A stretch of DNA of 64,000 nucleotides from Nanobdellota archaeon (GCA_018816245.1 JAHIVW010000003.1:45195-109194); one strand, 5' to 3'. Shown: positions 1,326 to 45,774, counted from the first letter of the stretch. The notes: generated from the sequence alone by a model not told the origin. Program-made: numbers and translations.

Positions 1326-1433
1326 GCCTCCGTAGCTCAATTGGTAGAGCATCTGACTTGTACCTGATCTATGGAGCTTCGGCTGTGACAGCAGGAGATC
1401 AGAAGGTTCTGGGTTCGATTCCCAGCGGGGGCT
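1326..1433 (+). tRNA. tRNA-Thr(UGU) with 35-nt intron at 37/38 (1363-1397)
   Basis: GCCTCCG/CGGGGGC acceptor; D arm GCTC/GAGC; TCTGA-CT-TGT-A[intron]A-TCAGA; T loop TTCGATT. Confidence 0.93.
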
Positions 1434-33464: not shown

Positions 33465-33842
33465 TTACGCCAGCTCGTAGCCGATCTTGTCTGCAAGGGT
33501 TTGCATGGACTGCTCGCCGAGCAGAGTCGTCCCGTCTGGGAACATCCAAGTTGGATAGGCGTTGACACCAGCGTCCTTGCAGGCTTGAGTCTGGTCGCTG
33601 CGGTCAGGAAGCGAGCATTCAACGTAATCAATGTACTGCCAGCTTGGGCCGAATGCGGCCTTCTGTGCCTGACAATGACCGCACCAGAACGTGCCGTACA
33701 TCTTCACGCCGTTCTCAGTGAGCGCCTTGGCGAGGCCGTCGTAGTCGCTCGGCTTTGCGGCGAAGTAGCCGCTGGCACTGAGACCAATACCGCCGATCAC
33801 GAGGATCGCGATCACGAGGACAATGACGTATAATCCCTTCAT
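33465..33842 (-). CDS. Membrane-anchored thioredoxin-like protein
   Basis: N-terminal TM; MYG.FWCGHC..QK..FG; YVEC; YPTW. Confidence 0.85.
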   Translation of the reverse strand: MKGLYVIVLVIAILVIGGIGLSASGYFAAKPSDYDGLAKALTENGVKMYGTFWCGHCQAQKAAFGPSWQYIDYVECSLPDRSDQTQACKDAGVNAYPTWMFPDGTTLLGEQSMQTLADKIGYELA

Positions 33843-33883
33843 AGTGAAAAACGAATGCAGGAGAGGTTATAAACCTTCTCCTA

Positions 33884-33898
33884 TATAACAGTGTTATA
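33884..33898. other. Palindrome TATAAC-AGT-GTTATA (end of island A)
   Basis: Same core as at 39068, 41345 and 44907. Confidence 0.7.
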
Positions 33899-33955
33899 AT
33901 TGAATTGACAGAACGATCGTACCCGAAGGCCGGCCGTTCCGTCGTTGTTGCAAGG

Positions 33956-34057
33956 TCATTGCGGAAAGATGAGATCGTTGTACACAATCGCAATGATGAT
34001 CAACGCGATCACAACCGCTCCCACAATGGTCAGGGTGTCGAGTGTTTTTTTCTTCAA
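33956..34057 (-). CDS. 33-aa single-TM peptide (MKKKTLDTLTIVGAVVIALIIIAIVYNDLIFPQ)
   Basis: TTG start with a purine-rich SD; clean basic-then-hydrophobic profile. Confidence 0.55.
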   Translation of the reverse strand: MKKKTLDTLTIVGAVVIALIIIAIVYNDLIFPQ

Positions 34058-34070
34058 GGTAAAACCCCCT

Positions 34071-34274
34071 TCACCGCAGCTGTGTGTAACCACACGAACA
34101 CTGGTAAACAGACATGACCGGTTCGTCGCCGGCAGTCGGGAGCATATACGAGAAATGGATCACTCCCCCACATTCTGGACAAACCAATGGTTCAGTCGGC
34201 ATGCGGGAGGCGACGATAACCAGAACAGCTACTGCAAGAACAAAAATGACGAGCATTGTGATGAGAAACTCCAT
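34071..34274 (-). CDS. Small TM + Zn-ribbon protein
   Basis: GGAGGGAG SD; TM helix, CPECGG...CSCG. Confidence 0.65.
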   Translation of the reverse strand: MEFLITMLVIFVLAVAVLVIVASRMPTEPLVCPECGGVIHFSYMLPTAGDEPVMSVYQCSCGYTQLR

Positions 34275-34372
34275 GATTCTCCCTCCGAGGAAAGAGACGC
34301 CCGGGTGTGCACGCTGCAGTCGCCTGGTCGCCCCACCATTAACTCCAACATACTCCCCGGGCGTCGTTCTTG

Positions 34373-34816
34373 TTACGGATTGTCTTGTGTTTCGACCTGG
34401 AATGCATACCAGATCTTCCCTCCCTCGATCTTCTGCACCTTCAAGATCCAGGAAAACCCGAGGAAGTCCGAGACGTCACCGAAGAACTCATGCGGCACGT
34501 CATTGACAAGCAAATACACACTTTCCCGATGGAACCTGTCCCCTTCCACCACAGCGAATCGGGGAGGAGGGGATGTCGAATAAGCGGTCACTTCTTCGGG
34601 ATCGTAGAAGACCAGAACCGACGGATCCGGAGTGACAAGCTGCTGGCCAGCTTCAGCGATGCGCACAACGAGTCCGTCGAAGCCCTCATGGTAAATAGTA
34701 ACAGCGCTCTTGGTATCGTCCATACCACTGCCCCAAAAGGTGAGGCCGATGATGATAAAGATGACACACAGAATACAGACCATCAGGACTTTTTCGATGT
34801 TTCCAACGTTTCCCAT
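34373..34816 (-). CDS. Membrane-anchored hypothetical protein
   Basis: AGGAAGGA SD; N-terminal TM. Confidence 0.6.
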   Translation of the reverse strand: MGNVGNIEKVLMVCILCVIFIIIGLTFWGSGMDDTKSAVTIYHEGFDGLVVRIAEAGQQLVTPDPSVLVFYDPEEVTAYSTSPPPRFAVVEGDRFHRESVYLLVNDVPHEFFGDVSDFLGFSWILKVQKIEGGKIWYAFQVETQDNP

Positions 34817-34849
34817 TGTTCATTCCTTCCTATCATGCGCCTGTGCTTA

Positions 34850-35059
34850 CTATCGTCTGGTCCGCTTGACGACGTACTGATCGATGTCACTCGGATGGAA
34901 TCGTAGAATAGGACGCCCGGTCACATCAACACCGGGGATTGCACGGAGCTCGCCGTCGTTGACAAGTCTCCTCAATTCTTCCTCAGTCTTGCCGGGAATG
35001 CCGATCTCCTTACACTTCGCCATCACCTGCCCAGACGACAGGGGCCCTCTCTTACTCAT
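34850..35059 (-). CDS. Excisionase/MerR-like small HTH protein
   Basis: AAGGAG SD; ELRRLVNDGELRAI...RFHPSDIDQY pattern. Confidence 0.6.
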   Translation of the reverse strand: MSKRGPLSSGQVMAKCKEIGIPGKTEEELRRLVNDGELRAIPGVDVTGRPILRFHPSDIDQYVVKRTRR

Positions 35060-35297
35060 GACAATCTCCTTCTGTCTCGCGAGAGACTTCTGTGAAAAAA
35101 TAGATTCCCATCACTCCGTACACCGCGTCCTTCCCAACTGCTATCGGTCAGATAACCTGGACGTTATGGAGTGATCTGTGAGCATGAACTGCTCAGAGGT
35201 AAGCCCCTGAACAATATAAATACCGCTGATAGGAGAAAAAAGAAAAAGAAGGAAACAACCGATGTGTGGAGGGGCCAGCACACCGGATGTTTCAGAT

Positions 35298-36419
35298 TTA
35301 GCGTACCATTTTGATGCCGAGCTCTTGCGAGAAGTCCCGCACGTGCTGGCCATTTGCCGAAGCTTCGCGCTCAGCAGGACCGAGGATGTACGGACTCTTG
35401 ACGCCCGTGACAATCGTGATCACCCGGATCTTGCCCTTGAAGTCGTTGTCAATGCGTGCACCCCAGATGACCGGTGCGTCAGGGTCCAATTGCTTGGACA
35501 CGTATTCCCCGATCAAGTTCACTTCGTCCAGTTTGAGGTCCGGACCGCCAGTGATGTGGATCAGTGCGCCGGTCCCGCCGTCATAGTTGACCTCGAGCAA
35601 CGGGTTGCTCATGGCCTTGATCACCGATTCTTCTGCGCGGTTCTTGGTGTCTGATTCACCAAATCCAACCGCAGCAACACCACCAGAATGCATGATGGTC
35701 TTCACGTCGGCATAGTCGAGGTTCACCAGGGATGGTTGTGAAATGGTTTCGGTAATACCCTTGATGATGGTTGCGACCAGGTTGTCTGCAACGGCAAATG
35801 CTTGCTGCAGCGGCAGGTCGCCGGCAATCTTGAGCAACCGGTCGTTCTCAATAACGATCACGGTGTCGCACATCTGTCGCAGGTGCCCAAGCCCGTCTTC
35901 AGCACGGCCAATGCGCGCGCCTTCGATCTTGAACGGCATGGTGACACAACCAATAACGATTGCGCCCATTTCCTTGGCGATGCGCGCCAGCACGGGTGAC
36001 GACCCTGTTCCGGTTCCGCCACCAAGGCCAGTGCAGATGTACACCATATCGACCCCTTCCATCTGTTTCTTGAGTTCTGAATGGCTTTCTTCGGCAGCCT
36101 TCATCCCGACTTGGGGATAGCCGCCAGCGCCGAGGCCGCGAGTCAATTCCTTCCCGATCAGCATCTTCTTGTCTGCTTGGCTGATGGACAGATGCTTTGC
36201 ATCAGTGTTGATAATCAATGTTGTTGCACCTCTGATGCCCATTTGGGTGAGCCGTGTCACGGTGTTGTTTCCGGCACCGCCCGACCCAATCACCATAATC
36301 CGGGCCTCTTTTGCAGCTACTCCAAACTCGTCGGCAACATGCTGCGCATCAACCTTTGGGGTTGAGTAATCGCCGACGGATGCACGCTCTTCAAAGACGC
36401 GCTGAACCACTGAATCCAT
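35298..36419 (-). CDS. ftsZ: Cell division protein FtsZ
   Basis: GGAGNN, NTDAKHL, GLGAGG, GGGTGTG, NLDYAD. Confidence 0.96.
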   Translation of the reverse strand: MDSVVQRVFEERASVGDYSTPKVDAQHVADEFGVAAKEARIMVIGSGGAGNNTVTRLTQMGIRGATTLIINTDAKHLSISQADKKMLIGKELTRGLGAGGYPQVGMKAAEESHSELKKQMEGVDMVYICTGLGGGTGTGSSPVLARIAKEMGAIVIGCVTMPFKIEGARIGRAEDGLGHLRQMCDTVIVIENDRLLKIAGDLPLQQAFAVADNLVATIIKGITETISQPSLVNLDYADVKTIMHSGGVAAVGFGESDTKNRAEESVIKAMSNPLLEVNYDGGTGALIHITGGPDLKLDEVNLIGEYVSKQLDPDAPVIWGARIDNDFKGKIRVITIVTGVKSPYILGPAEREASANGQHVRDFSQELGIKMVR

Positions 36420-36615
36420 AGACTCCCCTCCATTTTGTTTTGCCCTCACGGGCTGTGGTTCCGCCGGTGGAACGTATATACCCGAGCATATACATCTTTC
36501 CAGCGAAATCTTTATGTGTACCCATGACTAAGGATACTGCAGAAGTCGTCTTCCCAAGATGCTTCCTCAGTGCTTCAGGTCCGAATGGCAGTTCGGATCT
36601 GAAGAGTTTTCTCAT
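36391..36615 (-). CDS. Possible small ORF upstream of and overlapping ftsZ
   Basis: GTGAT SD-like element; 74-aa frame; no recognisable domain. Confidence 0.3.
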   Translation of the reverse strand: MRKLFRSELPFGPEALRKHLGKTTSAVSLVMGTHKDFAGKMYMLGYIRSTGGTTAREGKTKWRGVYGFSGSARL

Positions 36616-36738
36616 TTTTGTATCACACGGTATCGGAAGCTAGTTCTATTATTCAAGCGCTACTTTATAAAGCTTCAGAAAGTTTTGTCGCTGTTCGCAG
36701 ATGTCGACAGTTAAAAAGCTGCGGGCCGTTGTAATCCT

Positions 36739-37146
36739 ATGCAATCCTATGACGAGTTATTGAAACGCGGCATGGCGCAGGTGCCGGAGAAAACCAAAGC
36801 CGATGACCGATTCGAAGTCCCGAAGGCCCATGTCATGCGTGCAGGACTGAAGACTATTGTTACCAATTTCAACGAGATTGTAACGGCGTTGCGCCGGAAG
36901 CCGGACCATTTGTTGAAATTCCTGCTGAAAGAACTGGCGACCAAGTACGAGTGGTCAGGAAACCAGTTAATCTTCCAGGGAAAGTTCCCGCCGGAGTTGA
37001 TCGACAAGAAGATCGACCTGTACGTCAAGACCTATGTGGTCTGTCCGGAGTGTAAGAAACCAGACTCCAAGATTATCAGAGAAGGGATTCACTCGTTCCT
37101 GAAGTGCGAGGCGTGTGGCGCGAAACACGTTATCAGCAAAGTATGA
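36739..37146 (+). CDS. eif2b: Translation initiation factor 2 subunit beta
   Basis: RFEVP, NF.EI...L.R...HL.KFL..EL, YV.CPEC..PD, CEACG. Confidence 0.93.
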   Translation: MQSYDELLKRGMAQVPEKTKADDRFEVPKAHVMRAGLKTIVTNFNEIVTALRRKPDHLLKFLLKELATKYEWSGNQLIFQGKFPPELIDKKIDLYVKTYVVCPECKKPDSKIIREGIHSFLKCEACGAKHVISKV

Positions 37147-37868
37147 TGGATTTCGTTCACTGAGTAGGAGCTTGCTGCTGGTTTTGTGTATATTAATAGT
37201 GAAACACTAAATGAAGTCATATCTTGCATACTCATCAGTCACTCACCATAACGTCTCAGTTGCATAAAAGCAACATATAAGAGAAGAACGTGGCGCATAT
37301 ACCCCTTTTTGCCGCGCCGACAGCGGCAGTTCTGAGTGGCTGGATTTCTGACGAAAGTCAGAAGGAAGACAGACAAAAGACGCGCGCGGTGTGTTGGGAA
37401 TGGACTCCAGTTCGTTGTCAAATGACAAGATCTCTCTTCCTCCCCATGCATGGGAGAGACACATTGCGCGTTTCAGGTAAATGCGCGCTCGTGACGGACT
37501 AACCAATTGGTGGGGCGAGTGGTAAGGCTAGACCGAAAACCGAGCGCGCAACAACCATGCCGCACAGCAGTATCTGAGTGCTCCACCGGCCCCGATCATT
37601 TCCTCAGATGCTGGCCTTCGCTCAATCCACCCTCCTCCCTGAGAAGGTTGATGTCCTCGGAGAAAAGGTCCGATTTGACGCTCGTGTTTCGCCAAATGGG
37701 AGAAGGACATCCTGTGCACTTTTCAACAACTGCGCGCATCCGCTGATCAAGAAGGGAGGTGTAACCGGGACGAAAGTTAAACGACAATCCCTTCACGTTG
37801 ACCCCTTGGGTGCGCGCACGTTCAGACAGGCCGATACCGGAAGGACCCAGAGAAAGGAGGAGAGATCC

Positions 37869-38006
37869 GTGAACTGGGCATTGTGGTTGATCGGGTTCAT
37901 AGTTCTTGGTGGCATCACACTATGGTGGTGCCGACCTATCAGACCCACAATCGAGACACCTCAGGACCCTTTCCCTGAAGGGTACCCAGAGGATGCAACA
38001 CATTGA
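37869..38006 (+). CDS. 45-aa single-TM peptide
   Basis: AAAGGAGG SD; GTG start; WALWLIGFIVLGGITLWW. Confidence 0.55.
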   Translation: MNWALWLIGFIVLGGITLWWCRPIRPTIETPQDPFPEGYPEDATH

Positions 38007-38550
38007 CCCGACCGCTTTCAGACCGCGCCTAGAGGACAAAAGTGAAGCCACACAACCGGACCTTCCCCATCGTTTGTGTGCCTGGCGTGCCAACACCGGG
38101 ATGAGACTTTGCTTCTGCGTCCTTAAGGCGCGATCTTTGCCTACCACGTGCTTCTTCTTCCCGGTTGCTTGTGGTAGGTGTTGTTCCCGTTCCCTGTTGT
38201 CAGCTGTGATGAACCAGCTGAAGCCCAGGGCAACAAATGGGAACGGAAGGTGCTGTGTGCCATCGCGGTACCAGGAGGTGTACGAGTGGGTATAACCTCT
38301 TGGGCACAGCAGCACGAGGCTGATGACCTCAGAATGCCGGGCATCAGTGACCAACTGGGGGACACTGATCGGTTCGTACCAAAGCCCATTTGAGTCACGT
38401 GAAGGGACACAACTGGGAACCGAGACCCGGCTTCTTTTTTCAGACACCAATGTCGATACCGGTTTCTTTGCCGAGCCTGGCCGGCGGTTGGAAAGGAGTG
38501 TGCCAGGAAAAACGGTTTGGAGAGAGTTTTTTGTCTGACGAGAGGAGAGT

Positions 38551-38730
38551 ATGGGAACTGGAAAGCAACGAGGGAGAATGAAATCCCCCAAGAGCGTCCG
38601 AGAAGAGCGGGCCACACGACGCCTACAGCTCGAAAACTTCAGGCGGCTGGGGTTGGATGAGTTCGAAGACGAACCCGAACAGCGACCTTGCATGAAGCCC
38701 AACGGACGCTCAGAACGTCCTCCCATGTGA
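38551..38730 (+). CDS. 59-aa charged hypothetical peptide
   Basis: GAGAGGAG SD; MGTGKQRGRMKSPKSVREERATRR... Confidence 0.4.
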   Translation: MGTGKQRGRMKSPKSVREERATRRLQLENFRRLGLDEFEDEPEQRPCMKPNGRSERPPM

Positions 38731-39006
38731 ACTCTCCCTGAACCTGCGTCACGTTGAGGTGAACTCCCTCCTATAGGCTTGAATGCCTCTCTCATTACCG
38801 GTGACAGAGGAGCAATCCTTAGTAGCTGGAACGACACACCTCAACAACATCTTCAGGAGAAGAAGGGGCATGTGCCAATTGGGTCTTCGTCCCCGAGACA
38901 TCCCCGACACCAATTGGCACTTTCTGGCGGTGTGGAGGATTAGTATAGGAAAAAGCCGTCGTGCCATTGCCTTCCGGTCCGACACCACTTTAGGTAGTGG
39001 CACAAG

Positions 39007-39062
39007 AAGACATTGGGAGTCCTGCCAAAATTCCTTGAACTATACGCTCCCAATGTCTTTTT
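39007..39062 (+). terminator. 13-bp perfect hairpin plus T tract closing island B
   Basis: AAGACATTGGGAG (39007-19) / CTCCCAATGTCTT (39047-59). Confidence 0.55.
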
Positions 39063-39096
39063 CCCTAATATAACATTGTTATATATCACCAAGAAA
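39061..39096 (+). repeat. 36-bp direct repeat, copy 1
   Basis: TTCCCTAATATAACATTGTTATATATCACCAAGAAA, identical to 41338-41373. Confidence 0.95.
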
Positions 39097-39097
39097 A

Positions 39098-39700
39098 TCA
39101 AAACTTCTCGAACTCCGAGGTATCGATCTCCTCGAACTCGTCAACGTCGTCTAGGTCGTCATCCTCTCGATGCTTGTCTTTCTTCTTCGGCTCCTCTTCT
39201 TCAGGCGGCTCTTCCTGTGGCTCAGGCTCTTCCCGTGGCGGCGGCTTCACTGGCTCAGACGGCTTCAGCACCGGCGATCCCTTCCGGATCGTCTCTGCGA
39301 TCTGCTGCATGCTCTTCTCGTCCAGCTTCTTGGGCTGGAGGATGGCCTCGAGTGCCAGCGGCCCCTCGTTTGAGAACCGCGGGATGATGTGGAAGTGGAG
39401 GTGCGCAACCACCTGCCCTGCTGCCTGGCCGTTGTTCTGGATAATGGAAATGCCCTGCGCCCGGACCCCGGCCTTAACTTGCTTGGCAACCCGCTTGACT
39501 GCCCGGAGGTAGGCCTCGTCCTGTTGGTCAGGGAGGTCCATCAAGGTCTCAACATGGCCCTTGGGGATCACCAACGTGTGGCCAGGATTCCGCGGATTGA
39601 TGTCCAGGAACGCCAGGGTTCGGTCATCCTCAAAGATCTTCTTGGTAGGGATTTCTCCCCGGACCATCTTGCAGAAAATGCAGTTGGCTGTGTCAACCAT
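39098..39700 (-). CDS. HIT family hydrolase with acidic tail
   Basis: CIFCK, AFLDINP..PGHTLVIPK, HLHFHIIPR. Confidence 0.92.
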   Translation of the reverse strand: MVDTANCIFCKMVRGEIPTKKIFEDDRTLAFLDINPRNPGHTLVIPKGHVETLMDLPDQQDEAYLRAVKRVAKQVKAGVRAQGISIIQNNGQAAGQVVAHLHFHIIPRFSNEGPLALEAILQPKKLDEKSMQQIAETIRKGSPVLKPSEPVKPPPREEPEPQEEPPEEEEPKKKDKHREDDDLDDVDEFEEIDTSEFEKF

Positions 39701-39982
39701 GCCCTTCTCTTTTTTCGAATCCTTAAATCCCTTCAAAAAGGTTTTATAGGTTGTTTGCCAATTATTGGTAGCATGCTTCTCTCCCTGAATTCCACAACCA
39801 CGCTGTCCAAACGACAGACTATGGGCTAGCAGAACGTCGATCGATCTCTCGCTGAGCGAACGATCACGGCTAGCCAAAGCAGGGGACGTGGAAGGACGGA
39901 AGAGGACAAAAGACACGGGAACGGTCCCGGTGTCTTTGGTGTTCTGGGCGTTCGTTTCTCTGTACACATGGGGCAAACTGTT

Positions 39983-40069
39983 ATGATTGTACGTAACGCC
40001 AAGAAGTCCACTCAGAAGAAGGTCGCCAAGAAGAAGGCCACCAAGACGAACCGGCCTCTGTTGGAGTAG
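39983..40069 (+). CDS. 28-aa Lys-rich peptide (MIVRNAKKSTQKKVAKKKATKTNRPLLE)
   Basis: AAG-codon-rich frame followed by a hairpin/T tract. Confidence 0.45.
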   Translation: MIVRNAKKSTQKKVAKKKATKTNRPLLE

Positions 40070-40105
40070 CAGCCCGCCTGGCGAATACCCCAACTACGTG
40101 ACCAC

Positions 40106-40143
40106 GCCGCACCGGTAGGTGGTATCCGCGGTGCGGCCTTTTT
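40106..40143 (+). terminator. Intrinsic-terminator-like hairpin
   Basis: GCCGCACCG...CGGTGCGGC followed by CTTTTT. Confidence 0.55.
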
Positions 40144-40670
40144 GAAATCAACGACGGAAACGTCGAAACTATATCTCGCGGGCCTGAACTCTGGGTTCTC
40201 GGGAGAACCGGTCGGTCTTTCTTTTCGAAAGTCAAGACTGCGGGTAACTGACCAGAGGCTGACCGGTGCTTTTTCCTTTCAACACAACGTGAGCCTTGGG
40301 AACTGCGATCCGTTCCTTTTGGCTCCGAGCGCACCGGTCGGAAAGAACAGGATCCAGCTCTTCTGGGGAGAAGTTGTGATCGACGGCTCCCGACCGGTGC
40401 GTTTTTCCTTCAACAACTCCCTTTTTTTGTTTTGTGTTTCTGCAGAAGTCCACGTGAACGGTACGGCACGTGTCGTACCAGTGTGGCAATGGTTGCAATA
40501 TTCGCGGAAACCTCGAGAGGAGATTCGCTTATGATTGCCGCCAGTTGGAAGACGGTGCTGAAGCAGAAGAACGCTCACGACGGCGACTCTTCCTGACAGA
40601 AGCATCAACGTTCTCGAACGCGCCGGCTGGATTCACCTCGGAGTGTCTCTGGCCGGCGCTCCTTCATCTT

Positions 40671-40750
40671 GCGGGTGTAGCTCAGTGGTTTAGAGCGAAG
40701 ACACCTTGCCAAAGTCTAGGTCGTGGGTTCAATTTCCATCACCCGCTCCA
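40671..40750 (+). tRNA. Atypical bacterial-type tRNA-Gly(GCC) with expanded anticodon arm
   Basis: GCGGGTG/CACCCGC acceptor, U73, encoded CCA, TT-GCC-AA loop with extra nucleotides in the 5' stem strand. Confidence 0.7.
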
Positions 40751-40783
40751 GACAACCGAGTCCTCTTTGAGGAGGGGTTCTCT

Positions 40784-41104
40784 ATGTTTCTGAAACCCGT
40801 GACCGCGCTGTTCCGGGACGCCCTCAGGTTCATGAGGATTGCAGCAACGAACCCTGAACCGAAGGACAGTCCAACCACGGTCACATCACCCGGACCGTCT
40901 CGCGGCGCTCTGCGTTCTGGTCGTCCAAGACGATCACCACAACGAGGCCGGGGGCGGCCGGCACGGCAAAAGCTGATGCACCGGACGGACCCGTTCCTCT
41001 TCGATGTAGCGGGGGGCCCCCAAAATCCTCCTTCCAATAAATGGAGGGATAATCGCAATACGTTCACGGAGAAGGCTTCGGGGGCCGGTTCTTCGACGAC
41101 GTGA
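40784..41104 (+). CDS. Hypothetical basic, disordered protein
   Basis: GAGGAGG SD; R/P/G-rich 106 aa. Confidence 0.35.
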   Translation: MFLKPVTALFRDALRFMRIAATNPEPKDSPTTVTSPGPSRGALRSGRPRRSPQRGRGRPARQKLMHRTDPFLFDVAGGPQNPPSNKWRDNRNTFTEKASGAGSSTT

Positions 41105-41183
41105 GCGTGATGGCATGAAGGATACTCCTAGTGTGTGTGCATCACAGATTTGGTCTAACAACCAGCTGTGATGCACACCTTTT

Positions 41184-41256
41184 TTGGCCGTAGCTCAGTG
41201 CAGAGCGCTACCTAGAGTGGTAGAGGTCAGAGGTTCAATTCCTTTCGGCCCAACCA
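41184..41256 (+). tRNA. tRNA-like element with 6-nt anticodon loop (Pro-like)
   Basis: TTGGCCG/CGGCCCA acceptor, GCTC/GAGC, CTACC-TAGAGT-GGTAG, TTCAATT loop, A-CCA. Confidence 0.6.
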
Positions 41257-41259
41257 CAT

Positions 41260-41334
41260 GGACCCGTAGTTTAACATCTAAAAACGCCGGATCACGCGAA
41301 TCCGGAGATGCAGGTTCCAGACCTATCGGGTTCA
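41260..41334 (+). tRNA. Degenerate tRNA-like element with 9-nt anticodon loop
   Basis: GGACCCG/CGGGTTC, GTTT/AAAC, CCGGA-TCACGCGAA-TCCGG, imperfect T arm. Confidence 0.5.
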
Positions 41335-41337
41335 TCA

Positions 41338-41373
41338 TTCCCTAATATAACATTGTTATATATCACCAAGAAA
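41338..41373 (+). repeat. 36-bp direct repeat, copy 2
   Basis: Identical to 39061-39096; contains the stop codon of the convergent DUF255 gene. Confidence 0.95.
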
Positions 41374-42817
41374 CAGCCTTGTTCACCAGCCGGTCAACCG
41401 CAATCCCGAACCCCGCGCCCAGCACACCCTGGATCCGGTACACCCCTTTCACGGACTCAAGCGCCAGCTTCGCAAGCGCGTGGTCCGGCGCGTCCCCGGT
41501 CGCGTCAAACAGATCAAGGTAGAACTGCGCTGCCTGCACGTTCAACGAAAACACCGTCTGCTGCTGCTCCAGTTTTCCAACATCATCCTTCTGGCCGATC
41601 CGGTCAAGGAAGCCTCCGCCCCGTTCCAGGAAGTTTGTTTCCACGATTTCTGCGATCTCCTGCGCCTTCCGCAGTGCTGCTCCGCGCTCAAGTGCTTGGT
41701 ACAGTGCCACGTATGCACGTCCCATGGCAACAGAATCAGGCAGCCACCCCAAATGCACTACCCGCTTCCCTTCGATGTAGTGGGCAAAGCCGCGTTTCTT
41801 GTTGTATGCTGTTTCAAGCCGCTCGAATGCCTGCAACACTGCCCGGCGCGCGCGCCGGTCCTTGCTCGCCGTGAAATAGTCCAGGAACGCAACCAACGCA
41901 TGTCCGTTCTTGTCAACGAAAATCCTTGTGTCAACCTGTGCTTTCTTCTGTTGAGCGGTGATCTGACCTGCATACAACCCTCCATCAGGGTCAGCGAGGT
42001 TCCGAAGCAGGTAGGTTGCTGTCTTCCGGGCAAGATCCAGATGCTGTTTTTTCTTGGTTTGTTGATAGGTCAACGACAGCATGCGGAGCAATGCTGCGTT
42101 CGTGTCAAGCAGCTTCTCACGATGCGGCTCCCGCCAGTCGCGTGAAATCGAATACCGGAACCACCCGCCCCGGGTATCGAGCAACCCGCGTTTCATACCC
42201 GTGATACTTTTCTCGACCATGGACAGGTACGGGGATCGCATGACCGGCTTCTGTTTCGTTGTTTGCAGGCCACACGTCCTCGCGTGTAATCGGAGGCAGA
42301 ATTCAAGGGCATCAGGATGGGGAAACTTCGGTTCGCTGCCAAACCCACCATACGTGCTATCAAATGACGTCCGCAGCAACGACGCAATCTTGTCTACAGT
42401 TGCCGGTGCCAGTTCGCCGTGTCCCAGCCGCATGCCAGTGAAGGCAAGGGTTTCCAACGGCTTCCTGCTGCCACCTTTCACCTTATCCACGGCCACCTGC
42501 ACTCGTTTCGCCATCATCTCCGGCGGAATGAACAACCCGCCGTCGAGGACGCTCCCATCATGATCAAGCAACACCGTTGACGGCCAGCCGCCCTGGTTGT
42601 ACCGCTGGTTGATGTCCGGCCGCTTGTCGGTGTCGACCTTGATTGCAACAACATGCTTGTTGATCAGGTTCGCAACAACAGGATCGTTGTAGGTCCGCTG
42701 CTCCATTTCATGACCTAACACACACCACGTGCCAGTGATGTGCAGGAGAATTGGTTTGTTTCCTCGTTTCGCTTGGAGGAACGCTGCCCTGGACCAGTCG
42801 CGCCACTGAACCCCCAT
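41363..42817 (-). CDS. Thioredoxin-domain (DUF255/YyaL-like) protein
   Basis: W..W...AF..AK..NKPI, IKVD.D.RPD, GGWP, D..YGGFG..PKFP. Confidence 0.85.
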   Translation of the reverse strand: MGVQWRDWSRAAFLQAKRGNKPILLHITGTWCVLGHEMEQRTYNDPVVANLINKHVVAIKVDTDKRPDINQRYNQGGWPSTVLLDHDGSVLDGGLFIPPEMMAKRVQVAVDKVKGGSRKPLETLAFTGMRLGHGELAPATVDKIASLLRTSFDSTYGGFGSEPKFPHPDALEFCLRLHARTCGLQTTKQKPVMRSPYLSMVEKSITGMKRGLLDTRGGWFRYSISRDWREPHREKLLDTNAALLRMLSLTYQQTKKKQHLDLARKTATYLLRNLADPDGGLYAGQITAQQKKAQVDTRIFVDKNGHALVAFLDYFTASKDRRARRAVLQAFERLETAYNKKRGFAHYIEGKRVVHLGWLPDSVAMGRAYVALYQALERGAALRKAQEIAEIVETNFLERGGGFLDRIGQKDDVGKLEQQQTVFSLNVQAAQFYLDLFDATGDAPDHALAKLALESVKGVYRIQGVLGAGFGIAVDRLVNKAVSW

Positions 42818-42871
42818 GCTGAAACCTTGGCGTAGAAGTTCTTTAAATAATCAGAACGCCACCTTCAACCT

Positions 42872-43174
42872 ATGGCCAGCATGAACCAGGTGATCGAGGC
42901 CATAAAGCTCTGTCTTGATCCGGAAATCAAGATCGATGTCTGGACCCTGGAACTCATTTACGGGATTGACCTCACTACAGCAGGGACGGTTTCGGTGAAG
43001 ATGACTTTTACGACGCCCTCCTGTCCCTACGGGCCCCAACTGATTCAAGATGTCCACGATAAAATCAAGGTGCTCGAGGGCGTGGCGCACGTTGTCATTG
43101 ACGTTGTGTTTGATCCGCCCTGGCAGCCGTCCGACGACCTCAAGACCATGATGGGCATGACAAGTGGTGTGTAA
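42872..43174 (+). CDS. DUF59/SufT metal-sulfur cluster assembly factor
   Basis: DPEI.I.V..L.LIY, T.P.CP, FDPPW. Confidence 0.88.
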   Translation: MASMNQVIEAIKLCLDPEIKIDVWTLELIYGIDLTTAGTVSVKMTFTTPSCPYGPQLIQDVHDKIKVLEGVAHVVIDVVFDPPWQPSDDLKTMMGMTSGV

Positions 43175-43467
43175 TGCACGGCAAGGCAACTGAAAAGATT
43201 CCCGGCGGCAAGCTGCTCCGCGTTGCTGCGGATTTTGGGAACACAATTACCAACGTAGAAATCACCGGTGATTTCTTTCTCTATCCAGAAGACGGACTGC
43301 CTCATCTTGAAGCATCACTCATTGGTGTTTCTCTCCCAATCGATGAACATACTGTGACAAAAATACTTGACACTGTCGTGAAACAACACAAGCTGCAGCT
43401 CCTTGGCATCACGCCTGACGCAATTGCGCATTGTTTAAAAGCAGCAACGGAGGAAGCCCATGGCTGA
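43174..43467 (+). CDS. Lipoate-protein ligase C-terminal domain subunit (LplB-like)
   Basis: K.PGGKLL.V, ITGDFFLYPE. Confidence 0.85.
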   Translation: MHGKATEKIPGGKLLRVAADFGNTITNVEITGDFFLYPEDGLPHLEASLIGVSLPIDEHTVTKILDTVVKQHKLQLLGITPDAIAHCLKAATEEAHG

Positions 43468-44221
43468 GTTCACGTGGTGGCGAATCGTCCCGCTGGCAAC
43501 CAACACTGCTGCGATGAACATGGCCATTGACGAAGCCGTCATGGAAACCGTTGGCGCCGGTCGGGCGCCGCCAACCATCCGCTTCTATCGCTGGAAACCG
43601 TCTGCGGTGTCCATCGGCTGTTTTCAGTCATTGAACGACGAAGTGCGAACCGATGTTGCGACAAAACAGGGCATTGACATTGTCCGCCGCCGAACCGGTG
43701 GCGGTGCGGTCTATCATGATTACGACGGGGAAATCACGTACAGTGTCATTGGCAAAGAAACATTATTTTCCAAAGGAATCACGGAATCGTATCACGAGAT
43801 CTGCGGCTGGATCATCAAAGGACTTGCACACCTCGGCATCAAGGCAGAATTCAAACCAATTAACGACATTGTTGTCAACAACAAGAAGATTTCCGGGAAC
43901 GCGCAAACACGACGAAACGGTGTCTTGCTGCAACACGGCACGATCCTCCACGATCTTGATGTCAACAAAATGTTTTCGGTGCTAAACGTCAGCCAAGAAA
44001 AGATTGCTGATAAAATGATTCAGGCAGTTGAAGATCGGGTCACGCGCGTCAAGGACGTTGTTCCACAGGCAACGCTCACGGACACATACAATGCGCTGCT
44101 GAAAGGCTTCACCGAAGGCAAGGAACAGCGGTTTGCGTTGTTAATCAAGGACGAACTCGCACGTGCCCAGAACCTTGCCAAGAAACGATACAGCACCAAG
44201 ACGTGGACAGGATCACGATGA
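43460..44221 (+). CDS. lplA: Lipoate-protein ligase A
   Basis: NMAIDEA, RRRTGGGAVYHD, NDI...KKISG.AQ, QHGT. Confidence 0.92.
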   Translation: MAEFTWWRIVPLATNTAAMNMAIDEAVMETVGAGRAPPTIRFYRWKPSAVSIGCFQSLNDEVRTDVATKQGIDIVRRRTGGGAVYHDYDGEITYSVIGKETLFSKGITESYHEICGWIIKGLAHLGIKAEFKPINDIVVNNKKISGNAQTRRNGVLLQHGTILHDLDVNKMFSVLNVSQEKIADKMIQAVEDRVTRVKDVVPQATLTDTYNALLKGFTEGKEQRFALLIKDELARAQNLAKKRYSTKTWTGSR

Positions 44222-44667
44222 AGGAAATCTGGACCGAGATCGAGATCAACGCGCCAGTGTCCGTTGTCTGGAACGTCTTGACGGATTTTCTTAACTACGC
44301 GCGGTGGAATCCGTTCATCCGCCGCGGCACCGGCACAGCAACGGTCGGTTCCCGGTTGGAATTCCTGATCCAGCCACTCGGCAGCAACGGCATCGTGTTC
44401 CGGCCGATGGTTACGCGCGCCACAGTCAACGAGGAACTGCGGTGGGTTGGCCATTACCGGCTGCCGGGATTGTTTGACGGGGAACACGTATTCTTGTTGG
44501 GTGAGATCGAGCAGCACCGGACCCGGGTGGTGCATCGCGAACGACTGAGCGGTCTGCTCGTCCCGTTTTTGTGGAAGCAGTACGGCAAAGCGACCGAACG
44601 CGGGTTCTCTGCTATGAACAGCGCTTTGAAAGAACAGGTCGAACTGGTCCAGAAACACAAAACATAA
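44218..44667 (+). CDS. SRPBCC domain protein
   Basis: TEIEINAP...VW.VLTDF..Y..WNPF; F..MN.ALK. Confidence 0.88.
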   Translation: MKEIWTEIEINAPVSVVWNVLTDFLNYARWNPFIRRGTGTATVGSRLEFLIQPLGSNGIVFRPMVTRATVNEELRWVGHYRLPGLFDGEHVFLLGEIEQHRTRVVHRERLSGLLVPFLWKQYGKATERGFSAMNSALKEQVELVQKHKT

Positions 44668-44695
44668 TTTAAAGGTACGAGACAATGGGGTTTGC

Positions 44696-44890
44696 ATGAA
44701 ACATATGAAATGCAGCGACCTCGGTGGCGGGTGCGACTTCGAAGCAACGGGCGAGGACGCAGAAGAGATCAAGATCGCGTTGTTCGAACATGCCGCGACC
44801 GAACACCCGGAGGAGTTCAACGTCATGACCGACGAGGAACGGGACGCTGCGGCGAAGAAGATTGACGTCTTTGTTGAAGCGCAGGAGTGA
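44696..44890 (+). CDS. DUF1059 small metal-binding protein
   Basis: C.DLG..C.F...G....E......HA...H. Confidence 0.8.
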   Translation: MKHMKCSDLGGGCDFEATGEDAEEIKIALFEHAATEHPEEFNVMTDEERDAAAKKIDVFVEAQE

Positions 44891-44906
44891 TGTTTTTCTT
44901 TTCAAA

Positions 44907-44920
44907 TATAACAGCGTTAT
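44907..44920. other. Palindrome variant TATAAC-AGC-GTTAT
   Basis: Matches the island-terminal palindrome; lies just upstream of the tRNA-Leu TATA box. Confidence 0.55.
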
Positions 44921-44958
44921 CTACGCATTATAAGCGCTCCGGATCTAACAATCCTCAC

Positions 44959-45086
44959 GCGAGGGTACCCAAGCGGTCAACGGGGCAGGACTTAAGTTCC
45001 CGTCGGACGGACTTACGTGCCGATGCGCAAGCGATGAGGTATCCTGTGGCTGAGCGCCTTCGGGGGTTCGACTCCCCTCCCTCGCA
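44959..45086 (+). tRNA. tRNA-Leu(UAA) with 44-nt intron (44997-45040)
   Basis: GCGAGGG/CCCTCGC-A; CAGGA-CT-TAA-G[intron]A-TCCTG; long variable arm. Confidence 0.92.
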
Positions 45087-45147
45087 TTACAAACCGCCTC
45101 GTGAATCTACCAAATAAGAAAATAACGTTTTACTTCTTCTACTGACT

Positions 45148-45774
45148 ATGGACTCGAGATCTTCACTCAGGCGCAGAACAGAGGCCGTGAGCGGGTATTT
45201 GACTCATTTTGTGGAAAGCACCTTAGAAACGTACCTAAATGGGAGGGGAAAGGTTGTTTTTATTGGACGCTCATCTCGACCCTTCTACAACATTGCATCA
45301 ACATATACAGAGAGTGATATTGAGTTTATTGATGTGCCAAGAAAGCTTCTCGAGCAAAATCCCGATGATCTCGTGTTTCAGTATTTGGAAGATAGCGGCG
45401 CTTTCGCTGATGATACTGTAACACTTGTTGATGATGGAGGAAGAGGATATTTTATGAGAAAATTAAGAGGTGTTATTGAACGAGAATCAAGAAACACAAT
45501 TGACGTGACATCTCAGACGCTTTTCTGTCTTGATCCACGACAACCATGTCGTTTGTACCAACATCCTTCTGAAGCCCCTTATATTGTGAGATCCCTCCTC
45601 TTTCTCGGCAAACAACCACATCCATACCGATTAACAGGCGAGTTAGTTGAGAAAGATGGTGTTGTTTCTGCTGTTTCCTATCCAACATCCCTTTCCGAAC
45701 AAAAAGATGCTCAAGAAGTAACATCTATTCTAAAAAACAAAGCCCTCTCGAACGCAAAACGTATTTTCTGTTGA
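45148..45774 (+). CDS. Hypothetical protein (PRTase/HAD-like motifs)
   Basis: VVFIGRS and VTLVDDGGRG motifs; AT-rich, next to the tRNA-Leu 3' end. Confidence 0.55.
   Translation: MDSRSSLRRRTEAVSGYLTHFVESTLETYLNGRGKVVFIGRSSRPFYNIASTYTESDIEFIDVPRKLLEQNPDDLVFQYLEDSGAFADDTVTLVDDGGRGYFMRKLRGVIERESRNTIDVTSQTLFCLDPRQPCRLYQHPSEAPYIVRSLLFLGKQPHPYRLTGELVEKDGVVSAVSYPTSLSEQKDAQEVTSILKNKALSNAKRIFC

Follow-up and report, generated by a model that had tools for sequence, protein, structure and literature searches.

The question raised by positions 33,884 to 41,373 of a 64,000-nucleotide (nt) stretch of archaeal DNA, deposited as Nanobdellota archaeon (GCA_018816245.1 JAHIVW010000003.1:45195-109194; the whole stretch is called the window here), is what a short palindrome, TATAAC-N3-GTTATA, does beside three unusual islands, termed A, B and C. 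An earlier, sequence-only reading of the window had taken the islands for one family of low-coding, RNA-rich cassettes, each ending in the palindrome, and had offered two accounts of the site: a non-autonomous, integron- or dif-like cassette system mobilised in trans through it, or a regulon marked by a boundary-binding protein. The second account comes near the reading favoured here, i.e., a protein-binding operator in the spacers between transcription units. The palindrome is probably the operator of a conserved DNA-binding protein, likeliest a self-regulated helix-turn-helix (HTH) protein of 102 amino acids (aa), and not a recombination site, and the set of sites appears to have expanded in the host genome. 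Beside the odd islands the palindrome looked striking; once its genome-wide context is known, it reads as an ordinary regulatory site.

The window is part of contig C4 of the host genome, G000 (G000:C4:45195-109194), an 886-kb assembly of six contigs that is 88% complete and probably represents a groundwater lineage of the Aenigmatarchaeota, a phylum of uncultured DPANN archaea whose genomes measure about 1 Mb; the nearest named homologues of two of its proteins are labelled 'Candidatus Aenigmarchaeota archaeon', and its DNA occurs in groundwater metagenomes. Genes were called with codon log-odds trained on long open reading frames (ORFs), followed by greedy selection, which covered 79–90% of the four large contigs; by the same crude calls, about 12% of the DNA is intergenic. 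The palindrome was counted in a strict form (TATAAC-N3-GTTATA), a core form (ATAAC-N3-GTTAT) and, for cross-genome counts, a narrower form, ATAACANTGTTAT, with the reversed motif as the control pattern. In the window, TATAACNNNGTTATA is found exactly at 33884, 39069 and 41346, where the earlier reading had placed it, compared with an expectation of zero from 100 dinucleotide-preserving shuffles, and the fourth variant that it had noticed is borne out as the core ATAACAGCGTTAT at 44908–44920. Genome-wide, there are 26 strict and 51 core copies, far above the background of 0–2 in five shuffled genomes.

Nearly all of the core copies (49 of 51) are intergenic, and for 33 of the 51 the start of a called protein or tRNA gene follows within 150 nt. 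In the closest class, with the centre 40–50 nt from the ATG, the palindrome ends 6–9 nt before a TATA-like box, i.e., against the position of the transcription factor B recognition element (BRE). TATA-like words peak sharply at −30 to −26 from the start codons (121 vs. 2–48 in other bins, over 429 upstream regions), suggesting that most mRNAs of this genome should be leaderless, and a Shine–Dalgarno (SD)-like word is present in only 102 of these 429 regions. The conserved core spans 15 base pairs (bp), T-ATAACA-N-TGTTAT-A, with a weak A/T preference to about ±10 nt and zero information beyond. The genes downstream are mixed, including those for CTP synthase, ribosomal proteins, thermosome, prefoldin, topoisomerase I, RtcB, archease, Lhr, a GTPase and transporters, and one site precedes a 5S rRNA. 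A LAGLIDADG endonuclease-like ORF (169 aa, C4:282890–283399) was also observed to adjoin a palindrome copy, followed from C4:283451 onward by a 5S rRNA-like sequence and a tRNA-Asp.

Two of the copies in the window are upstream elements of ordinary promoters. The first, TATAACAGTGTTATA (33884–33898; palindromes and repeats are given without strand), is an exact match centred 49 nt upstream of the ATG (33842) of a thioredoxin-like gene on the minus strand (33465–33842, 125 aa, Pfam Thioredoxin, E 4.6e-05), which is its likely target, with a TTTATAA box in between. The variant ATAACAGCGTTAT (44908–44920) is followed by a ATTATAAG box, and the start of its likely target, a plus-strand, intron-containing tRNA-Leu(UAA) (44959–45086), lies 45 nt from the palindrome centre; this tRNA was found in the ARAGORN intron mode, with a weak tRNA-clan Rfam match in the same place. 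As a separate observation, GC-rich hairpins beside palindrome copies, one at window positions 33921–33945 and one at C4:460548, share the core CCCGAAGGCCGG and similar flanks, and in both cases a small gene of membrane or pilin-like type ends directly before the hairpin.

The conservation of the palindrome was followed in 61 genomes of the order and 151 sampled from the phylum, with locus-level counts usually made over 30 loci. The narrower form ATAACANTGTTAT is present in 53 of the 61 genomes (the reversed control occurs 0–1 times per genome), and the motif is present in 103 of the 151. The usual copy number is 1–10, and counts of the narrower type rise to 38 in G000, 21–41 in family f4 and 18 in the genome G049. 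In five genomes with 3–5 sites each, the site stands upstream of Orc1/Cdc6 and of a 243-aa HTH_3 protein in all five, of Hjc and of the 102-aa HTH_3 protein in three each, of Lhr in two, of a metallophosphoesterase in one, and of PolB and NAC in one.

The gene for the 102-aa HTH protein has orthologues in 59 of the 61 genomes, and the exact core is found within 80 nt upstream of it in 23 of 30 loci, with the right arm of the site usually abutting TTTATAAA; four more loci carry the site with 1–2 mismatches. At orc1/cdc6, 25 of 30 loci have 1–5 copies within 700 nt upstream, spaced about 70–110 nt apart in DNA that is 80–94% AT, and three of the five loci without a site had less than 250 nt of upstream DNA to examine. 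The 243-aa HTH gene has an upstream site in 12 of 52 orthologues, several of these being common to the adjacent orc1 or hjc. Thermosome orthologues, used as the control locus for upstream-site counts, have a site in one of 30 loci, which is that of G000 itself, and a thermosome or stress regulon was ruled out on this count. In family f6, where the narrower type is scarce, versions of TATAAC-N3-GTTATA that differ in their centre letters occur about 200 nt upstream of orc1 in 7/7 genomes, and a one-mismatch version sits on the TATA-like box of the 102-aa HTH gene in 6/6. The genome with the most palindrome copies, G000, is one with a degenerate copy at the 102-aa HTH promoter, where most relatives have a perfect one.

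The sites upstream of orc1 lie in what is likely the replication origin, C6:5917–9239 in G000. There, the spacer C6:7141–7409, between orc1/cdc6 (C6:5917–7140) and a metallophosphoesterase gene, contains five TTTC..TGGAA repeats and holds the palindrome in its AT-rich core; the gene for the 243-aa HTH_3 protein, P0001 (C6:8081–8812), and hjc follow. Many genomes of the order show this pairing of orc1 with the 243-aa HTH gene. Across orc1 upstream regions, the palindrome adjoins separate TTTC..TGGAA-type repeats and G-strings, which we take to be like origin recognition boxes (ORB). The palindrome is not confined to origins, since besides the orc1 loci counted above it occurs at about 50 other loci of G000.

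A site that is over-represented, intergenic, palindromic and conserved on the promoter of a DNA-binding protein has the features of an operator. The protein in question, a Cro/C1-type HTH protein encoded at C4:317073–317381 in G000, has a recognition-helix region that is invariant across 24 homologues, and its structural model is all-helical with six helices and a predicted local distance difference test score (pLDDT) of 91.6. A Foldseek search of this model against the PDB gave nothing at E ≤ 0.001, the HTH core alone resembling Cro/434/SinR-type domains, and a PDB sequence search and NCBIfam yielded no characterised relative of either the 102-aa or the 243-aa HTH protein. Searches of article full texts turned up no account of either the motif or the regulon for Aenigmatarchaeota or DPANN.

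In the mechanism proposed here, the 102-aa HTH protein would bind over the BRE and TATA box of its own gene, leading to self-repression. Its binding in the origin/orc1 region would control orc1 expression, initiation, or both, and its binding just upstream of the BRE at other genes could lead to repression or activation. The ancestral sites would be the one at the 102-aa HTH promoter and the 1–5 copies in the AT-rich origin region upstream of orc1/cdc6, with further conserved sites at the neighbouring replication and repair genes, i.e., those for the 243-aa HTH protein, hjc and lhr. In G000, the set may then have grown to about 50 copies, which occupy the gaps separating transcription units and in most cases immediately precede the BRE/TATA of a leaderless gene. 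Among the copies in the window, two would serve the thioredoxin-like gene and tRNA-Leu, and the other two belong to the identical 36-bp sequences in which islands B and C end. The motif offers a pairing of a site with candidate proteins, together with a core regulon that is predicted to comprise replication and repair genes, and its lineage-specific growth from a few to about 50 sites bears on how a regulon or boundary element can expand in a streamlined genome. A more ambitious version would make the 102-aa HTH protein a master regulator of the replication cycle in Aenigmatarchaeota: by binding the origin as well as the orc1, hjc, lhr and polB promoters and, in some genomes, that of ftsZ, it would couple the firing of origins to transcription in a CtrA-like manner, and in G000 it would also act as a boundary or roadblock in about 50 spacers, convergent ones included. 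This version is speculative and on present evidence unlikely to be correct.

Several observations weigh against the operator reading and its assignment to the 102-aa HTH protein. All of the site statistics depend on the crude in-house gene calls. The 102-aa protein is put forward as the binder on account of the association of the site with its own gene, and the upstream region of orc1 carries the site as often as the 102-aa HTH promoter does; therefore, Orc1/Cdc6 or the 243-aa HTH protein could be the binder. In G000, the site at the promoter of the 102-aa HTH gene (C4:317020–317072) is itself degenerate, with two mismatches. Among the genes downstream of sites in another genome, G027, nine have a homologue in G000, and only one of these also has a site there. 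Divergent, tandem and convergent spacers of G000 hold 14, 25 and 9 sites, compared with 15.5, 24.6 and 7.9 expected from their lengths, and this equal density in convergent spacers is unfavourable because a pure promoter operator should be depleted there. Finally, of 15 orphan sites examined, 11 (the copies at islands B and C among these) lack a TATA-like box in the roughly 100 nt to their left and right.

The same evenness across spacer classes is what would be expected if the bound palindrome in G000 chiefly separated one transcription unit from the next, as a boundary or roadblock that stops read-through and shields the promoter downstream, and was less a gene-specific switch. This alternative, which is compatible with the operator model, is consistent with the presence of a site in 9 of 56 convergent spacers, with the position of the site 3–24 nt past the upstream stop codon in tandem spacers, and with several convergent sites that are flanked, as judged by eye, by the hairpin-plus-T-run elements of both converging genes; the copies at islands B and C fit it as well. 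However, convergent spacers may hide uncalled small genes, as was the case at the orphan site C1:82040, after which come a TATA box and an ATG, and the number of sites in most relatives is too low for a genome-wide role. A mainly boundary function in G000 is deemed somewhat unlikely.

A second alternative retains the operator and changes the binder. This would be either Orc1/Cdc6, with the palindrome as an accessory element of the origin, or P0001, whose gene adjoins the origin. The arrays of 1–5 copies upstream of orc1, found in 25/30 loci and in all seven f6 loci, argue for it, as do the sites at P0001 in 12 of 52 orthologues and the adjacency of P0001 to orc1 and hjc in many genomes. On the other hand, the same origin regions already contain separate repeats, which we presume to be ORB-like, and G-strings; many of the P0001 sites are common to the adjacent orc1 or hjc; and the tightest and most uniform association is that with the 102-aa HTH promoter, where the site overlaps the BRE/TATA. 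Either of these proteins as the binder in place of the 102-aa HTH protein is, in our judgement, unlikely.

The islands are a topic apart, and the first of them differs from the other two. Island A (33956–35059, minus strand) is coding DNA that holds four small ORFs (34850–35059, 69 aa; 34373–34816, 147 aa; 34071–34274, 67 aa; 33956–34093, 45 aa) and is a small-gene operon. The excisionase-like HTH that the sequence-only reading had seen in it does not hold up, the only family match being HTH_17 at 19.5 bits, under the Pfam cut-off of 27 bits. The island A ORFs have no PHROGs or NCBIfam matches, and no island ORF has a paralogue elsewhere in G000.

The description as a low-coding, hairpin-rich island, which fails for A, stands for islands B and C. 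Island B (37147–39097, plus strand, 1.95 kb) is without a credible gene and is rich in hairpins, with putative small SD-led ORFs, as judged from gene calls, fold z-scores and hairpins; island C (39737–41362, plus strand, 1.6 kb), judged from gene calls and folds, likewise has no credible gene and contains hairpins with T runs and three tRNA-like elements. No ORF in either passes the codon-usage caller, and there is no Pfam or PHROGs match. The longest ORF (minus strand of island B, 37920–38837, 305 aa) was rejected as a gene owing to its poor codon score and its low-complexity, Ser/Arg/Pro-rich translation. Stable folds are frequent in B and C taken together, where 12 of 57 plus-strand windows of 120 nt have z < −2.5, compared with one of 59 in the coding stretch 41380–44860, and several hairpin-plus-T-run elements are present. 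The small SD-led ORFs of both islands are atypical for an apparently mostly leaderless genome.

As the earlier reading had noted, island B ends in a hairpin and island C in a tRNA-like element (41259–41336), with the palindrome directly after each. The hairpin of B (39004–39062, plus strand) has 16-nt arms that are 94% complementary and is followed by a T run, resembling a terminator. The palindromes lie within two 36-bp repeats that are 100% identical: the first (39061–39096) includes the palindrome at 39069–39083 and lies 1 nt from the stop codon of a HIT-family gene, and the second (41338–41373) includes that at 41346–41360 and overlaps the last codons and the stop of a DUF255/thioredoxin-like gene. 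The HIT gene (39098–39700, minus strand, Pfam HIT, E 9.9e-32) is located between the repeats, and the DUF255 gene (41363–42817, minus strand, 484 aa, Pfam Thioredox_DsbH, E 1.4e-25) follows the second. Both palindromes face the 3′ ends of these genes, and the roughly 100 nt to each side of them contain no TATA-like box. The islands do not form one family: B and C show no likeness to each other or to the rest of the genome beyond the shared 36-bp end, and the sequence around the copies at 33884 (island A) and 44908 is only 61% like the repeat.

Searches with the island sequences found little. Island B compared with 40 relatives gave nothing except its palindrome end, and island C compared with 60 relatives matched only at the palindrome and at one tRNA-like sequence, in the genome G015. 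PHROGs had no match among 10 island ORFs; viral contigs yielded neither relatives of the ORFs of 106 aa and 147 aa nor an exact copy of the first tRNA-like element; in a phage BLAST search, the tRNA-Gly-like stretch was the sole match; and Rfam (E ≤ 1, 33500–45500) gave tRNA-clan matches and two chance-level matches only. Islands B and C are non-coding, hairpin-rich DNA, probably of foreign origin and unrelated to the palindrome.

The three tRNA-like elements of island C, all on the plus strand, are not canonical cloverleafs with U33 and an anticodon loop of 7 nt; the ARAGORN drawings instead show oversized or odd loops, mismatched stems and A33. Element 1 (40671–40750, 80 nt) is Gly-GCC-like with an oversized anticodon loop and an encoded CCA; element 2 (41184–41256), which also encodes CCA, has an abnormal anticodon loop that was called as a four-base anticodon; and element 3 (41259–41336), which ends the island, is Ala-CGC-like with mismatched stems. 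The host's own tRNAs, in contrast, are canonical and lack an encoded CCA, and they include a canonical tRNA-Gly(GCC) at C1:33163 and tRNA-Ala(CGC) at C6:33483. Element 1 looks to be of foreign type, being 77–80% identical to phage tRNA-Gly genes. In G015 (L203, G015:C45, 1501–1572), a well-formed tRNA(TCT) with the acceptor and D-arm letters of element 1 sits in a gene-poor, hairpin-rich stretch, and these archaea may possess a family of mobile or viral elements that carry tRNAs. Separately, the ARAGORN intron mode finds intron-bearing tRNAs for Leu, Met, Trp, Pro, Ser and Arg in G000, and an Rfam tRNA match at window positions 1326–1433 spans 108 nt, suggesting a further one.

These features lead to a third alternative, in which the 36-bp repeats are scars of insertion or duplication, and the 2.28-kb segment consisting of the HIT gene and island C, or islands B and C themselves, are foreign DNA at a pre-existing palindrome. 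It would account for the identity at 36 of 36 bp, which is unique to this place (other copies differ in their flanks), for the tRNA-like elements with encoded CCA and phage-like sequence, unlike those of the host, for the related tRNA-like gene in the gene-poor stretch of G015, and for SD-led ORFs and hairpin-plus-T-run terminators that are unusual in this genome. However, no relative is close enough to reveal an empty site, and none was found: at the three loci anchored on ftsZ, aIF2-beta and ftsZ are all that matches the window, there being no close relative among the genomes searched, and a metagenome scan with the HIT protein returned only relatives of 39–46% identity. Moreover, no viral or plasmid match was found, and the segment includes a housekeeping-type HIT gene with its own promoter. 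At 87–89%, the repeat also resembles the upstream element of the thermosome gene, so it would be explained equally well if a regulatory module had been duplicated locally. The identical 36 bp are most likely a local duplication, or an insertion beside a pre-existing site. The scar account as a whole is decidedly unlikely.

Assembly data bear on both this account and mobility. In Logan contigs of the probable source run, contigs end at both 36-bp repeats and leave a 2,301-bp piece between them with a depth of 18.1, compared with 19.7 and 20.1 in the flanks. Contig breaks at these repeats are expected because the repeat is longer than the assembler word, and contigs that end in this way fit an inserted 2.28-kb segment and a circle alike. 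No contig joint that skips an island was found in the Logan contigs, and two runs of a second study contain parts of islands B and C at 100% identity.

A selfish, miniature repeat spreading in intergenic DNA, akin to repetitive extragenic palindromic (REP) sequences or miniature inverted-repeat transposable elements (MITEs), could produce the lineage bursts (38 copies in G000, 21–41 in f4 and 18 in G049) and the even density across spacer classes. The palindrome lacks the marks of such a repeat, since it is conserved over 15 bp only, its flanks past about ±10 nt are nearly free of information and are common to the B and C copies alone, its placement at orc1 and the 102-aa HTH promoter is stable across the phylum, and no transposase partner is evident. 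This origin is very improbable.

The account of the islands as non-autonomous, integron- or dif-like cassettes mobilised in trans at the palindrome has the least to recommend it and next to no likelihood: two islands do end in an identical 36 bp, the 2.28-kb inter-repeat stretch does form its own assembly unit in the Logan contigs and the tRNA-like elements of island C are of foreign type, but the islands share nothing past the 36 bp, no joint skips an island, those of the second study are identical, the inter-repeat depth is near that of the flanks, a Phage_integrase (PF00589, Xer-type) gene was not detected in the 88%-complete G000 by a search that was positive in 14/14 control genomes, and the site is intergenic throughout the genome and phylum, 51 copies being placed mostly at ordinary gene boundaries and phylum-wide at orc1 and the HTH gene. 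Neither is there an array of mostly promoterless single-gene cassettes, each with an imperfect attC of 57–141 bp, as in integrons, nor the single chromosomal site of dif/Xer. The motif is unrelated to island boundaries genome-wide, and this is the outcome that the sequence-only reading had named beforehand as refuting its cassette idea.

Compared with known systems, the palindrome resembles attC and dif/Xer sites in being short and in standing at the 3′ end of two adjacent units; it differs from them in that no recombinase was found in G000, no promoterless cassette array is present and a 15-bp site is used genome-wide at promoters. Yeast general regulatory factors, e.g., Reb1, bind upstream of promoters and also block read-through transcription. 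The sites described here are similarly found in spacers of every orientation, although the proteins are unrelated and a roadblock in G000 would be a proposal. Archaeal ORB and mini-ORB elements are origin repeats bound by Orc1/Cdc6. Like them, the palindrome is dyad-symmetric and occurs in 1–5 copies in AT-rich DNA beside orc1/cdc6; unlike them, it has distinct ORB-like repeats alongside and is also found on the TATA box of the HTH gene and at about 50 other loci. CtrA of Caulobacter, besides acting as a transcription factor, has several binding sites within the replication origin. The likeness to CtrA, i.e., one motif with several origin copies that also lies upstream of many genes, including those for replication and division, is an analogy of layout only, as CtrA is a response regulator from another domain of life, of a protein family unrelated to that of the small HTH protein.

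The closest resemblance is to self-regulated Cro/C1 (XRE) repressors such as Aca11 of Streptococcus, which combine a small HTH protein with a perfect inverted repeat and an operator over their own core promoter (PMC12658196). The inverted repeat of Aca11 has TATAACA and TGTTATA half-sites, and the system differs in its 2-nt centre, its 11-bp arms, its one or two operons and its bacterial host (PMC12658196). The G000 palindrome has a 3-nt centre instead (1 nt if the A/T positions are counted as arms), is combined with an archaeal TATA/BRE and is distributed over the origin and about 50 loci. The Aca11 likeness is a resemblance rather than homology, no homology beyond the HTH having emerged from the comparison. 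A self-regulated HTH operator would belong to a known kind of system, and the operator described here, which is found across the phylum, is unusually expanded in G000 and is paired with a candidate regulator linked to the replication origin, would itself be new.

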